A stretch of DNA of 64,000 bases from a bacterium. Its GTDB lineage: Bacteria > Electryoneota > Electryoneia > Electryoneales > Electryoneaceae. The position numbers and the translations under genes were made by a program. The first letter of the stretch is position 1. Each line of letters opens with the position of its first letter. Location: NCBI GenBank assembly GCA_963669175.1, contig OY769902.1:320001-384000 (forward strand). The letters are read 5' to 3'. Below are positions 23,292-58,751 of this stretch, in pieces. The notes below the pieces were generated by a model. The model had not been told where the DNA came from. It was given only the letters and a program-made list of their open reading frames with translations, and did no database searches.

Positions 23292-23870
23292 ATGCGAATT
23301 CTAGCCTGTGATGACGACCATTTAATGCGTACGATTGTTGCGGATTGGCTAACGAACCTGGGACATGAAGTTGTTACTGCGGAAGATGGTTTACGTGCAT
23401 GGGTCCGTTACAATGAGGAACACTATCCTGTAATTATTTCCGACGTGATGATGCCCAACATGAACGGCTATGAACTCTGCAAAAAGGTTCGCGCCGCCAA
23501 CCATGAAAAATACACCTACATCATTGTCCTGACCGCCCTTGAAGGAAAAGACAGCTACCTGAAAGCACTGCATGCCGGGGCGGATGACTTCATCAACAAA
23601 CCCTTCGATGAAGCTATCCTGGAAGCACGTCTTGAAGTCGCCCAGCGTATCCTGAAATTACAGACTACAGTAAAACAGCTTGAGGGACTGCTGCCCGTCT
23701 GCTCTTACTGCAAACGCATCCGTAAAGACGATGAAGAGCATAACCACACCGAATGGGTTGCGATTGATTCGTATATCCAGGAAAAGGCGAATGTGGACTT
23801 TTCGCACGGCGTCTGCCCGGATTGTTACAACGCGATCATCCGTCCGCAGTTGGGGGACGAGGACGACTGA
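23292..23870 (+). CDS. Response regulator (REC) with C-terminal CxxC...HxxCxxC motif
   Basis: ACDDD, ISDVMMP, FINKPF; tail LPVCSYCKRIR...FSHGVCPDC. Confidence 0.88.
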   Translation: MRILACDDDHLMRTIVADWLTNLGHEVVTAEDGLRAWVRYNEEHYPVIISDVMMPNMNGYELCKKVRAANHEKYTYIIVLTALEGKDSYLKALHAGADDFINKPFDEAILEARLEVAQRILKLQTTVKQLEGLLPVCSYCKRIRKDDEEHNHTEWVAIDSYIQEKANVDFSHGVCPDCYNAIIRPQLGDEDD

Positions 23871-24030
23871 TTGAATCCGGAACGTATCTGTATTTGAAGC
23901 AAACCGCAGTGCATTGTTTCACACCCCGGCTTCGCGAGTGCTGAAATTCATTCGACCGTTTGGCTTGACTGCTTGCTGTCGGGTTTCAATCCGCGGCCAG
24001 ACTACTCCCATTGTCACAACGAGATGTTAC

Positions 24031-24246
24031 CACGAAAAGGGGACGGGATCCTTTTCCCCGCTTATTTGCCGAACACTCTCGCTGACCTTGCGGAAAAGGA
24101 AACTGTACCCTTTTCGCAGTGACAAAACCTTATCACAGGAAACAGAATAGAGCGTTGTACTTCTTCACAGGCAAAAGGGAACAGCCACCTTTTCAATTCA
24201 CCGCATCACACAGTATTGCATCGCTTCACAACGAAAAGGAAACTGT
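24031..24246 (+). repeat. Family C four-hairpin repeat, interrupted by the IS in its fourth hairpin (resumes at 25722-25733)
   Basis: GAAAAGGGGACGGGATCCTTTTC, GAAAAGGAAACTGTACCCTTTTC, AAAAGGGAACAGCCACCTTTTC, then GAAAAGGAAACTGT | IS | CCCCTTTTGC. Confidence 0.85.
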
Positions 24247-24356
24247 TATAATGCATAAGTAGAAGCAGCCAACCTCGACGCAGCACACATGTCGGGCTAA
24301 CTTGTGTTAAAGGCGTAACACGAGGTTACCCGTAGTACTTACACGAGGAGGTTGGC

Positions 24357-25403
24357 ATGCAGGCAGTATACTACATCGGTCTGGACGTACACAAGAAGAA
24401 GATTGCGTATTGTATTCAAACGTCGGCAGGTAAGATAGTTGACCAGGGCATGGTTGCATCCACCCGTCCTGCTCTTTCAAACTGGGTTGCGAAGTTACCG
24501 ACTCCCTGGGCGGCGGCGATGGAAGCGACGTTGTTTACAGGCTGGATTTATGATTTTCTGAAGCCGCATGCATCGGCACTGAAGGTGGCACACCCGGCGA
24601 TGCTGAAGGCGATTACGGCGGCGAAGAAAAAGAATGACAAGGATGACGCCAAACGTATCGCAGATCTGCTCCGTATCGACCTGTTGCCGGAATGTTACAT
24701 GGCACCATCAGATATCCGTGAGCTACGCCGTGTGCTGCGATTTCGCAACAAAATCGTCCGGCATGCCGTGAGCCTGAAGAACAAGACGGCCGGATTACTG
24801 ATGGAAGTGGGCGCTGAGTATTCGAAAAGGCGTCTACATGGCAAACGCTACTTCCATGAATTGCTCATTGAACTTGATACGCTGGATGAGATTCCGACCA
24901 CTGTGGTTGAGATGTTGCGAATGAATCGTGCCGGCCTTGAGCTGTTTGAGACGCTGCAACTTCAACTGGTTAAGGCGCTGGCTACGCATTCGCTGTTGGC
25001 AGATCGGGTGAAGTTGTTGATGACGATCCGTGGCATTGGTGTGATGACCGCGCTGACATGGGCGTTGGAAGTGGGTGAAGTGGAACGGTTTGCCAGTATT
25101 TCCAAGGCAATCAGTTACTGCGGTTTGTGTAGTGCGCAGCAGGAATCAGCGGGAAAAACGAAACGGGGACCGTTGTCCAAGAAACGAAACAAACATTTGC
25201 AGACGAAACTGATCGAAGCGGCGAAGCTGGCGCCACAGTGGCATCCAGAGCTGCAGATTGTGCATGACCGTGAACTGGCACGCAGCAATCCCAACCGGGC
25301 AACATTAGCGGTAGCACGAAAGCTGGTAGCTTATCTGATGGCGGTTGATCGACGGGGAACGCCGTTTGTTCAAGCCGACACGACAACAGAACTTGTAAAC
25401 TAA
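24357..25403 (+). CDS. IS110-family recombinase/transposase (DEDD RuvC-like plus Tnp20 domain)
   Basis: YIGLDVHK, AMEAT, KNDKDDA, RGIGVMTA, SYCGL...QQESAGK...LSKKRN. Confidence 0.95.
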   Translation: MQAVYYIGLDVHKKKIAYCIQTSAGKIVDQGMVASTRPALSNWVAKLPTPWAAAMEATLFTGWIYDFLKPHASALKVAHPAMLKAITAAKKKNDKDDAKRIADLLRIDLLPECYMAPSDIRELRRVLRFRNKIVRHAVSLKNKTAGLLMEVGAEYSKRRLHGKRYFHELLIELDTLDEIPTTVVEMLRMNRAGLELFETLQLQLVKALATHSLLADRVKLLMTIRGIGVMTALTWALEVGEVERFASISKAISYCGLCSAQQESAGKTKRGPLSKKRNKHLQTKLIEAAKLAPQWHPELQIVHDRELARSNPNRATLAVARKLVAYLMAVDRRGTPFVQADTTTELVN

Positions 25404-25434
25404 CATTCTATGCCACAACGCGTATTGTAAACCG

Positions 25435-25700
25435 GACCTGCCCGCCAGGCCTCACGAAACAGGGGACTATGCTTCGGGCATCCTTGAAACTGTTTAGAGG
25501 CTGGTCGGGTGATCCCTAACTTCATCTTCTGTGACGGGCCATATGGCCCCGAGACAGACCATGAATGTCTGGCCGTAAGGTCTGTTGGCGGCCCACGCGA
25601 GAGCGAGCAAAGGTCAGGAAAAACGCGTTGAGGAAGAGGTTAGGCATCGTCCTGGTTCAGAGATGAATCAAAGGACTCGGGAAAACTCCGTCTTCCCCTT
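25435..25700 (+). ncRNA. Putative bridge RNA/seekRNA of the IS1111-type element (ends approximate)
   Basis: Stem-bounded internal loop holding AGGGGAC (25461-25467, bottom-strand target match) and GAAACTGT (25486-25493, top-strand target match) around an ATGC-ttcgg-GCAT hairpin. Confidence 0.75.
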
Positions 25701-25831
25701 GACTCTACTTATCATGAAAGTCCCCTTTTGCTGCCAATATTGGCTCGAGAGCGTAGCGATCTACAAGAATTTCCGGCTTTCGAGCATGCTTCCACCTTGC
25801 GAGATCGTCCTTTCCGCGCCTATTCTGTAAC

Positions 25832-27859
25832 ATGACACGGAAAACGGGACGATCCATCTTACCGGCTTTGATTCAGACCCATCCCGCCTGGGTTCTCTTC
25901 GGGATTGCTTTGTTGCTCCGCATCGTCCAGCTCGTTTTCGTATATCGCCAACCCGGTTTCGATCTTCCGATTGTTGATGAAGTCCATTTTGACATCATGG
26001 CCCGCAACCTCGCGGACGGCACTACGATGCATGACGGTCCCTTCTTCCGTCCGCCGCTCTGGTCCATCCTGCTTGCCGGCCCCTACAAACTATTTGGTCA
26101 GCATTTCTTTCTGGCGAGGTTCCTGAACACCATTCTTGGTTCGCTTGCGGTAACGGCTTCCTTTCGCCTTGGCAAACGTCTGTTTCATCAGCGTGTCGCC
26201 TTTACCGGTGCATTGATCTTTGCCTGCCAGGGGTTCTTCATCCATAACAGCACAACCGGGCTGGCTTCCACCCTGCTGGTCTATCTCAGCCTGGAAGCGT
26301 TGCAGGTTACGTTGTATGCTCGCAATCAAAATCGCCTTCGATACTGGCTTATTGCCGGACTACTGTGGGGACTTGCTGCCATAGCCAAACCGGTCGTGCT
26401 GGTGCCGGTGGTTGTCATTCTCTGTGATACCTTGTTCCGTAAAACAGCAACCGCCGGGTATCGTCAAAAAACGGCCGCGCTGTTTGTGCTTGGGCTGTTG
26501 TTGCCCATTATGCCTGTGACCCTGCGAAACTCGATTTCCGGCGATGCCGTCCTGGTATCTTCCAATGGCGGAATAAATTTGTATATGGGCAACAACGAAC
26601 AGGCGAATGGCGTCATCGTGTTTCATCCTGTCCTTGGCGTGGGCTGGACCGAGACCAATGCGCACTCGTGGGCGGAATCGGAAACCGGATACATGATGAG
26701 TCCGTCCGAAGCTTCATCGTGGTACACACAACAGGCGGTGCAGTTCTGGTTCTATCAGCCCAAACGTGCCTTCAAGCTGATACTGGATAAAGCCTATTAC
26801 ACATTCTCCGGGTTGATCTTCACCAACAATGGGAATCTCGGCTTTTACGCAAAGAGCAATCTTCTTTTACGGTCACTGCTTCCCCTGGGTTGGGGCGCTG
26901 TTTTCCCATTCGCATTGGTCGGCATGGTTCTCGCCTTCCGCAGGTCCGGCAATCATCGCTTGACGATGCTGGTAGCTTTCAGTTACCTGGGAATCTGTAT
27001 TCTCTTTTTTGTGCTGGCCCGTTTCCGGCTTCCAGCGGAAGGTATCCTGGTTCATTTCGCGGCATACACCGGGTGGTTCCTGCTGGGGCGCGAAGAAGTA
27101 ACTCAACAGGCTTCCGGAAAAATTCGCCTGCTGATATCGCTGGTTGTTGTTCTCCTGGCTTTGCCGGTGAATATGAACCTGAAGGGGATGAGCCGTTCCA
27201 TTGATTATGCTCACAGTTATTACCTGAATGGTCAGCTCCTGGCTCGTGAACACCGTTACTCGGAAGCGGCCCAGGCATTTCGTGACGCTATCGCACTGAA
27301 TAAGCGTATCCCACTCAGCTACCTGTATCTCGGGCAGGTTATGATGAAAATGGACAGCACAGAGCAGGCCATAAATTATTTCAAGCATGAAATCGCCACC
27401 TTGCCGAAAACCCAGTATTTCTCTGACCTGGTACTAAATGCTCAAGCCAATCTTGGACGCGCGTATATGAAGGTCGGCGATAAAGCGGAAGCGGAGCGAA
27501 CTTTCCGGGAGGCGCGTCAAATCTATGGTGGTGATCCCGGGGTAAATAAATACCTTACCAGTCTCATACTGGAGCGTACACGTGAAAAGCTAGTGCAAGA
27601 CGACTGGAACACAGCGCTTGAGAACCTTGAAGAAGCTGCCACTATCAACCCAAATGAACCGGCGCTTGCGTTTGCTTTTGCGGTAGCACGGTTCCATACC
27701 GGAAGCCCTGAGCACGCGAACCACATTATGGCTATCATCCTGAAGCATCACCCGGATTACTCGCCAGCTCAACGATGGCGGGATCAGGAGTGGCGCCCCG
27801 ACAGCCATGATATCCAGGAGCTGTTGCTCCCCTTCCTGGATGATGGCGAAAAAAAGTGA
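25832..27859 (+). CDS. GT-C (PMT/ArnT-like) membrane glycosyltransferase with C-terminal TPRs
   Basis: PIVDEVHF, FFRPPL, SSNGGINLYMGNN, ARFRLP; multi-TM N-terminal two-thirds; TPR tail. Confidence 0.82.
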   Translation: MTRKTGRSILPALIQTHPAWVLFGIALLLRIVQLVFVYRQPGFDLPIVDEVHFDIMARNLADGTTMHDGPFFRPPLWSILLAGPYKLFGQHFFLARFLNTILGSLAVTASFRLGKRLFHQRVAFTGALIFACQGFFIHNSTTGLASTLLVYLSLEALQVTLYARNQNRLRYWLIAGLLWGLAAIAKPVVLVPVVVILCDTLFRKTATAGYRQKTAALFVLGLLLPIMPVTLRNSISGDAVLVSSNGGINLYMGNNEQANGVIVFHPVLGVGWTETNAHSWAESETGYMMSPSEASSWYTQQAVQFWFYQPKRAFKLILDKAYYTFSGLIFTNNGNLGFYAKSNLLLRSLLPLGWGAVFPFALVGMVLAFRRSGNHRLTMLVAFSYLGICILFFVLARFRLPAEGILVHFAAYTGWFLLGREEVTQQASGKIRLLISLVVVLLALPVNMNLKGMSRSIDYAHSYYLNGQLLAREHRYSEAAQAFRDAIALNKRIPLSYLYLGQVMMKMDSTEQAINYFKHEIATLPKTQYFSDLVLNAQANLGRAYMKVGDKAEAERTFREARQIYGGDPGVNKYLTSLILERTREKLVQDDWNTALENLEEAATINPNEPALAFAFAVARFHTGSPEHANHIMAIILKHHPDYSPAQRWRDQEWRPDSHDIQELLLPFLDDGEKK

Positions 27860-58559: not shown

Positions 58560-58751
58560 GGGAAAAGGGGACGGGATCCTTTTCCTCGCGCGCATATGAA
58601 ACACTCTCGCCGAACTTGTGGAAAAGGAAACTGTACCCTTTTCCGTGTACGTCCTGCCTGATCTCAAGAAAAAGGGTACAGCCACCTTTCCCGGTCCATG
58701 CTCACAGCGGGAAGGCTTTGCCCCAGGGAAAGGAAACTGTCCCCTTTTTCC
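58560..58751 (+). repeat. Family C four-hairpin repeat, uninterrupted; contains an empty IS target
   Basis: Same four hairpins as at 24031; the fourth is GGAAAGGAAACTGTCCCCTTTTTCC. Confidence 0.85.

Follow-up and report, generated by a model that had tools for sequence, protein, structure and literature searches.

The window analyzed here, a stretch of 64,000 nucleotides (nt) from a bacterium of the family Electryoneaceae (phylum Electryoneota; contig OY769902.1 of assembly GCA_963669175.1, positions 320,001 to 384,000), contains an insertion sequence (IS) made of a short left end, a single transposase gene, and a 3′ non-coding region (NCR), which very probably encodes a guide RNA matching the element's own target, a repeat resembling a repetitive extragenic palindrome (REP) (Table 1). 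An earlier note, made from the letters of the sequence, had described this element as an intact RNA-guided recombinase of the IS110/IS1111 type with a GT core and a readable guide. The strings it quoted, AGGGGAC (25461-67), GAAACTGT (25486-93), and CATGAATGT (25560-68), were all found at those positions, as were the stem CCAGGCCTC/GAGGCTGG (25445-53/25497-25504) and the hairpin ATGC/GCAT (25469-72/25478-81).

Table 1 Positions in the window of the IS, its target repeat, and the predicted RNA features.
Feature	Position	Strand	Description
IS (IS110 family, probably IS1111-type)	24247-25721	+	1,475 bp with one GT copy counted
Left half of REP-like target	24233-24246	+	GAAAAGGAAACT plus core GT 24245-24246; same left flank at copy 2 and at two truncated copies
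Left end of IS	24247-24266	+	TATAAT 24247-52; subterminal inverted repeat ATGCATAAGTAGA 24251-63; read from sequence
Transposase gene	24357-25403	+	348 amino acids, DEDD recombinase with C-terminal Ser domain
3′ non-coding region	25404-25721	+	318 nt after the stop codon
Target-binding domain of predicted seekRNA/bridge RNA	25440-25510	+	stems 25440-25453/25497-25510 around internal loop plus small hairpin 25469-25481
Right-target guide AAACAGGGGAC	25457-25467	+	5′ side of loop; complement of top strand GTCCCCT.TT (core plus right flank)
Left-target guide GAAACTGT	25486-25493	+	3′ side of loop; identical to left flank plus core; would pair with bottom strand
Second (donor-side) domain	25511-25576	+	stem UCUGU 25528-32/ACAGA 25554-58 with GC hairpin cap; family-conserved and in the minimum-free-energy fold
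Candidate left-end guide UUCAUC	25521-26	+	assigned by family covariation; fits this element poorly
Right-end (left-donor) guide CATGAATGT	25560-25568	+	8/9 match to own right end plus core CATGAAAGT
Right end of IS	25699-25721	+	TTGACT 25699-25704; subterminal repeat TCTACTTATCAT 25704-15; terminal CATGAAA plus core GT 25720-21
Right half of REP-like target	25722-25733	+	CCCCTTTTGCTG

The product of the transposase gene has an N-terminal DEDD (RuvC-like) domain and a C-terminal Transposase_20 domain (Pfam PF01548, E 2.6e-20, and PF02371, E 7.5e-17) and scored 176.7 bits, against a cut-off of 140, with the NCBIfam model NF033542 ("IS110 family RNA-guided transposase"). Residues D10, E56, D94, D97, and S264 align with the ISCro4 chain and are kept in 73-74 of the 74 distinct proteins of the family described below; this D-E-D-D set and the serine are taken to be catalytic, as in IS621. 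The matches to structures in the PDB were weak (ISCro4, 9t56, and IS621, 8wt6; E about 1e-6).

The non-coding sequence is longer downstream of tnp (318 nt) than upstream (110 nt), which is the layout of the IS1111 group, and the length of the protein lies within the IS1111 range of 330-350 amino acids. Subterminal inverted repeats, which measure 7-17 bp in the IS1111 group, were read by eye at the two ends, ATGCATAAGTAGA (24251-63) against TCTACTTAT-CAT (25704-15), with 12 of 13 positions matching and a one-base gap; the repeat finder did not report them at the settings used. The C-terminal motif GLCSAQQESAG departs from the published GL-P----S(t)G in having S for P and SA for SG, and it is invariant or nearly so in the 74 relatives. 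PMC11187229, which gives a longer NCR downstream of tnp as a criterion for IS1111 elements, mentions an occasional TA in this motif. Judged by its layout, 24247-25721 is probably an IS1111-type member of the IS110 family, and the domain matches together with the downstream NCR, the subterminal repeats, and the 348-residue protein bear out the family assignment made in the earlier note. Its description of the element as intact stands at the sequence level only, at which the open frame and the catalytic residues are apparently preserved.

The junctions read GGAAACT-GT/TATAATG on the left (core at 24245-46; in longer form ...CGAAAAGGAAACT-GT/TATAATGCATAAGTAG) and CATGAAA-GT/CCCCTTTT on the right (core at 25720-21; in longer form ...TTGACTCTACTTATCATGAAA-GT/CCCCTTTTGC). 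Removal of the IS was said to restore its target site, and the 5.45-Mb host genome indeed contains 82 uninterrupted copies of the rejoined 13-mer GAAACTGTCCCCT, against an expectation of about 0.16; one of these copies lies in the window itself, at 58733. The consensus of the 82 empty sites is an imperfect, REP-like palindrome, GGAAAAGG-AAACTGTC-CCTTTTCC, and the insertion point is in the loop of this palindrome (GGAAAAGG-AAACTGT^C-CCTTTTCC), with a fixed orientation.

A second full copy of the element is inserted in the same type of repeat (GAAACTGT/..../GTCCCATTTTT). The two differ at 5 of 1,475 bases, all within tnp and leading to one amino-acid change, and their NCRs are identical; both have an open frame of 348 amino acids, all catalytic residues, and a TATAAT left end. 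As this left end is shared, the element must have moved, or been copied, at least once in that form. Three further copies are truncated left-end fragments (L003, L004, and L005). The earlier note had held that copies inserted at unrelated sequences would speak against a readable guide; all five left junctions in the genome fall within GAA(A/G)CTGT repeats, and both right junctions also lie in the target repeat. A low-stringency blastn search of the host genome with the NCR returned the two known copies only, and hence no orphan RNA genes. The contigs of four sequencing runs, compared with this site, gave no joints and hence no sign of a circle junction or an empty allele.

The truncated copies have different ends. 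L003 (G000:C1:1628752-1629068) is identical to the first 317 query bases and then runs into unrelated sequence, and L005 (G000:C1:4172435-4172594) shows 91% identity over 161 bases, with the left flank GAGAAGCTGT. L004 (G000:C1:2995185-2995414, equivalent to 24240-24469 of the window) holds the left ~220 bases of the IS and ends at an internal GTCC (24465-68 of the window), which is joined straight to the right REP half (GT)CCCCTTTTCCGTG, the deletion junction lying at GT then CC. The junction looks like the product of recombination between the true right flank and a pseudo-site inside the element; simple microhomology would also explain it. Several uninterrupted copies or variants of the palindrome are also found in the intergenic DNA upstream of the IS (24034-24057, 24094-24118, and 24170-24195), and variant classes of the repeat occur genome-wide (GAAACTGTACCCT, 31 copies; GAAACAGTCCCCT, 30; GAAGCTGTACCCT, 21).

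The two target guides lie on opposite sides of the internal loop in the first predicted domain of the NCR. The right-target guide AAACAGGGGAC would form 7 contiguous pairs with the core and right flank, and 9 of 11 overall, with a mismatch at +8; a repeat finder independently paired 25458-25468 with 25719-25729 (11 nt, 91% complementary). Both this pairing and that of the left-target guide overlap on the GT core, at which strand exchange would take place, and the complement of the top strand stands 5′ of the complement of the bottom strand, the order given for the matches of IS1111 seekRNAs in PMC11187229. When the NCR was shuffled (318 nt, mononucleotide composition kept), a top-strand 8-mer and a bottom-strand 7-mer that both span the core co-occurred in 53 of 20,000 shuffles. 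For the NCR alone this result is suggestive, not decisive, and the decisive evidence comes from the relatives of the element.

A scan of genome contigs gave 80 loci whose transposases are 59-67% identical in amino acids, mostly in metagenome-assembled genomes of the Thermodesulfobacteriota type, and a scan of metagenome contigs gave 80 more, none above 67%. In the phylum of the host, matches were found in 3 of the 79 species genomes of the collection searched, host counted, with relatives at 61% and 71% (partial), the latter (L008) being a truncated relic without NCR; a little-studied lineage, as the earlier note supposed, is plausible on these numbers. From the first set, 82 of 86 loci were parsed, while L007, L010, L034, and L086 failed the loop-anchor pattern, L007 and L010 being examined separately; L003, L006, L008, and L009, which are fragments or window duplicates, were dropped before the family counts. 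Parsing with the same code succeeded for 77 of the 80 metagenome loci, of which 13 were taken out because they repeated loops of the first set.

These relatives share one architecture. It starts with a left end (GT)TTGAATGCATAAGTA and, in the 3′ region, an opening GATCTTCCCGCCGGNCCTYGC, a variable word ending in AC, and a variable hairpin; a variable word ending in GT follows, then TTYRAGGCYGGYGGG, a second domain ending in AATGGATGTCTGGTCGC, and the right end CCCTTGACTTTACTTATCATGGATGT. The NCR of the element aligns to the family with 30 invariant columns, and both of its guide words are placed in the same internal loop. The GT core, as claimed from the single locus, is the family norm.

The two variable words were then scored against the flanks of their own element or those of other elements, the score being the number of matches out of 12, with each distinct guide represented by a single site. 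In the first set, left guides scored 7.94 with their cognate flanks (n = 52) against a permuted mean of 5.89 (maximum 6.54), and right guides 8.14 (n = 44) against 6.91 (maximum 7.66). The metagenome set gave 7.88 (n = 42) against 5.91 (maximum 6.74) for the left guide and 7.97 (n = 38) against 7.01 (maximum 7.76) for the right guide. In each of the four tests, 0 of 10,000 permutations reached the cognate score, a count that is not a probability because the permutations leave shared ancestry in and relatives can share both guide and target. The contrast for the right guide is small (about 8.0 against 7.0) because many relatives share targets of the GT/CCCC type. The pairing of the guides with left flank plus core and with core plus right flank, first read from one sequence, was thus recovered as covariation in two sets, which is the check that the earlier note had proposed.

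Position by position, the left guide showed specificity from −8 to −4 plus the core, and its family-specific span of −8 to −1 has the length of GAAACTGT (8 nt). For the right guide, specificity was found at +6 and at +9/+10, with a dip at +7/+8. The 8-nt left and 7(+2)-nt right matches of the element fit this profile.

A coordinated change was seen in L007 and L010, which come from a genome of the host's family and encode a transposase 61% identical to that of the element. The core at their junctions is GG. Between the right guide TGGTCGGGCC and GGCCCGACCA, reverse complementarity is perfect, over 10 nt in L007 and over 9 nt in L010; left guide and flank both end in GGTGG, the right end is CATGAATGG with the internal copy ATGAATGG, and the core complement in the candidate left-end guide, read by eye, is CC. 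Core, guide words, and right end have therefore changed together in these loci, which is a natural reprogramming.

Variation within guides and cores was observed elsewhere. A seawater metagenome contig (depth about 4), from outside the host's own sample, is about 95% identical to the element over 24268-25724, with changes concentrated in the guide words: the right guide has lost one base from its run of G, and the left guide carries two changes. The right guide thus shortened, CAGGGAC, fits the right flank of the contig, GTCCC/TGGATTTTCC; the left flank was not recovered. As a single low-depth contig, this is a weaker hint of a change in guide and flank. In L012, L017, L088, and L070, the right junction has a core whose second base varies with the right guide (GA with a guide ending in UC, GC with a guide ending in GC), and the left junction is GT, a pattern that suggests an exchange point or a heteroduplex within the dinucleotide.

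In the RNAalifold consensus of 65 sequences, two stems close the target loop, the small hairpin is present, and the second domain has a stem and a hairpin. Its 22 consensus pairs were 97.2% paired, compared with 89.0% in column shuffles and 33-45% when partners were slid; 16 of the 22 change on both sides, and 0 of 500 shuffles reached any of five measures. Helix 1 of the target domain alone was 99.1% paired, with compensatory changes in 8 of 12 pairs, and the stem changes include G-U intermediates. The stem ACAGACC/GGTCTGT, which the earlier note had drawn at the second loop, was not sustained: the conserved partner of ACAGA (25554-58), also found in the minimum-free-energy fold, is UCUGU upstream (25528-32).

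The second domain would read the ends of the element. The donor-like 9-mer picked out at this locus proved to be a family-wide copy of the right end that covaries with it. In 57 of 70 loci, the internal 8-mer is identical to the final 8 nt of the right end; 11 loci have one mismatch, and 1, where the end was called two bases off, has four. Three covarying variants of the right end were found, ATAGATGT in six loci, ATGAATGG in two, and ATGAATGT versus ATGAAAGT in the two copies of this element. The top pair of a mutual-information scan (72 distinct rows) joined position 7 of the internal word to position −6 of the right end (G/G 63, A/A 9, discordant 0). On its 5′ side, the second loop has one position that the same scan linked to base 3 of the left end (C/G 63, U/A 6, U/G 2, C/T 1). 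When the candidate left-end guide of the family, ACUCAAUC, is compared with the left end in reverse complement, ATTCAAAC, 6 of 8 positions agree, and the second core base is mismatched throughout the family. The left end of the element is TATAAT, versus TTGAAT in relatives.

CUAAC (25516-20; CAAAC in the family) was also considered as a left-end guide and was rejected, as its variable position does not change in step with the left end (10 loci combine CTAAC with GTTTG, and 5 combine CAAAC with GTTAG). At the right-end base adjoining the core, a T/A difference recurs in L067, L068, and L081, and L066 (same genome, same element) has T; the RNA copy always has T at this position, and the right end differs between T and A among otherwise identical copies and in separate lineages. 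In L073, the internal copy of the right end, ATGGATGT (...GCAAATGGATGT), forms the terminus of the element, and the flank that begins right after it, CCCCGGAATTAC, matches the right guide of L073 itself, ATTCCGGGGAC. The DNA that encodes a right-end guide seems able to act as the true right end, or to recombine with it, with loss of the −35 box and the inverted repeat.

If the two ends were joined, TTGACT (25699-25704), as a −35 box, would be separated by 17 nt, counted from the sequence, from TATAAT (24247-52) as the −10 box; TTGAC is found at the same distance from the end in relatives. In the integrated copy, the flank provides TTCACA 16 nt upstream of TATAAT, forming a promoter-like site (24225-24252, TG-n-TATAAT) with 11 of 12 positions matched. 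This hybrid of flank and IS is specific to this copy, copy 2 having a different flank at −35; transcription of the integrated copy may therefore not require excision.

By analogy with ISEc11 and IS621, excision would yield a circle, whose junction would create the promoter TTGACT-17-TATAAT and so allow transcription of the transposase and the RNA. The 3′ NCR would encode a seekRNA/bridge RNA in which the two stems of the first domain (about 25440-25510) hold the internal loop open. The DEDD/Ser recombinase, loaded with this RNA, would then bring the circle junction and an empty repeat together and recombine them at GT. On the same analogy, we infer production of the RNA, its processing to about 80 and about 150 nt, its binding by the protein, and continued movement of this copy.

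The anatomy of the sequence, the conserved structure, the covariation of guides with flanks and with ends, the abundant empty sites, and the intact catalytic residues form the basis in hand for reading the locus as an IS1111-type element with a guide RNA matching its own REP-like target, a reading in which we have high confidence. Several results weigh against it, besides the shared ancestry in the permutations and the small right-guide contrast already described. A scan of 23800-26000 with Rfam 15 (E up to 10) gave four chance-level hits, none of them in 25404-25721 on the + strand. Among the public sequencing runs, none of RNA is listed for this sequence. Since the target is palindromic, the two target guides are predicted to pair with one another in the free RNA of the element, so that an open loop is assumed for the RNA when bound by protein; the outer stems and the hairpin persist in a predicted fold with the guides kept unpaired. 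On the donor side, the right-end guide has T in the RNA against A at 25719, adjoining the core, and the candidate left-end guide of this element, ACUUCAUC, matches ATTATAAC at only 4 of 8 positions; the left-end guide of this copy is not convincing. Finally, with only two full copies, differing at 5 sites, and three truncated ones, the activity may not be recent.

These donor-side and copy-number results could also be accounted for if the family were RNA-guided and this element an impaired or inactive copy, no longer excising or inserting efficiently. The replacement of the family TTGAAT by TATAAT, the 4/8 match of the left-end guide, the mismatch of the right end with its own guide beside the core, and the small number of full copies, with three truncated ones, despite 82 perfect empty targets would all be expected of such a copy. 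An impaired copy is harder to reconcile with two full copies that keep the open 348-residue frame, the catalytic residues, and identical NCRs, and that share a TATAAT end with which the element moved or was copied at least once. Moreover, the left-donor position adjoining the core is reported to be the most mismatch-tolerant one of IS621 (PMC11208160), and a short ISEc11 RNA, containing the target-matching part only, sufficed for movement (PMC11187229). We hold impairment to be unlikely, while giving it some weight. It is very improbable that the 3′ region has its main role as DNA or as an RNA regulating in cis, for example through transposase binding, mRNA stabilization, or attenuation, with its target-like words being remnants of target captured by imprecise recombination. 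Captured target would be contiguous, whereas the halves are here separated by a hairpin and swapped in order on one strand; the stems show compensatory changes typical of RNA, G-U intermediates included, and the guides change with their targets in two independent sets. What such a role does explain is that no curated RNA family matches the region and that the right-end copy is able to act as an end at the DNA level, as in L073, which stops at ATGGATGT. The matches might lastly be thought to have arisen by chance, aided by a palindromic target with G/C runs, given that the joint match in the NCR alone is only moderately rare (the 53 of 20,000 shuffles above). Both guide words are kept in the same internal loop, and the chance explanation, which is hardly credible, is effectively refuted by the covariation replicated in both sets and by the coordinated change in L007 and L010.

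Reading the locus as an RNA-guided IS1111-type element also agrees with what has been published. In the experiments of Siddiquee et al. (2024; PMC11187229), IS1111-type elements use a seekRNA encoded downstream, with species of about 82 and 154 nt. For 93.0% of IS1111 elements, Durrant et al. (2024; PMC11208160) predicted that the right end holds a bridge RNA, with donor-binding nucleotides in many. The domains seen here (about 70-80 nt for the first and about 140-150 nt for both) resemble the published 82-nt and 154-nt species. Like ISEc11, ISPa11, and ISKpn4 (PMC11187229), the element has a DEDD transposase of 330-350 amino acids, a long NCR downstream of tnp, and subterminal inverted repeats; as in IS1111-type elements described there, a promoter would be formed at the circle junction, and ISPa11 likewise targets REP sequences. 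It differs from these three in its target, a GT core in GGAAAAGGAAACTGTCCCCTTTTCC, and in its C-terminal motif GLCSAQQESAG.

As in IS621 (PMC11208160), each guide includes the core dinucleotide, the left guide is directed at the bottom strand and the right guide at the top strand, the second loop would read the donor, and the mismatch noted here sits at the mismatch-tolerant left-donor position next to the core. Unlike IS621, which carries its RNA in the left end, the element would encode it in the right end, with the order of the guides reversed within each loop; it also has long inverted repeats, a GT instead of a CT core, and a protein only distantly similar (E about 1e-6 for both 8wt6 and 9t56). 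Insertion into repetitive extragenic palindromes is shared with ISPpu9 and ISPpu10 of Pseudomonas, which differ in host, repeat, and sequence; for ISPpu9, a small RNA gene is reported downstream of the transposase gene. The locus fits the published descriptions of IS1111-type elements in every feature tested, save the exact C-terminal motif and the left-end guide.

The interest of the locus is modest because the mechanism was already established in 2024, and two points go slightly beyond the textbook case, the guides naturally rewritten across a whole family and the odd left end. Regarding the latter, the left end may have been remodelled to a perfect −10 box at the cost of its pairing with the left-end guide, and the element have spread to a second site nonetheless, which we find rather improbable. 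If true, RNA pairing in IS1111-type elements would be required at the right end and the target only, and recognition of the left end would go through the protein and the subterminal repeats; the guide would then put no constraint on the evolution of the ends as promoters, and the logic of donor recognition would differ from that of IS621.

The locus adds a natural example from a small, little-sampled phylum, with a readable guide-target pair, a GT core, and 82 empty sites in the same genome. IS1111-type RNAs are less characterized structurally and biochemically than those of the IS621 type, and the well over 100 relatives with naturally rewritten guides constitute a data set for their pairing rules. 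Guide length, the tolerated dip at +7/+8, and the tolerance of mismatches beside the core could be learned from this family, and, for genome annotation, the 3′ end of such an element reveals what its target is.

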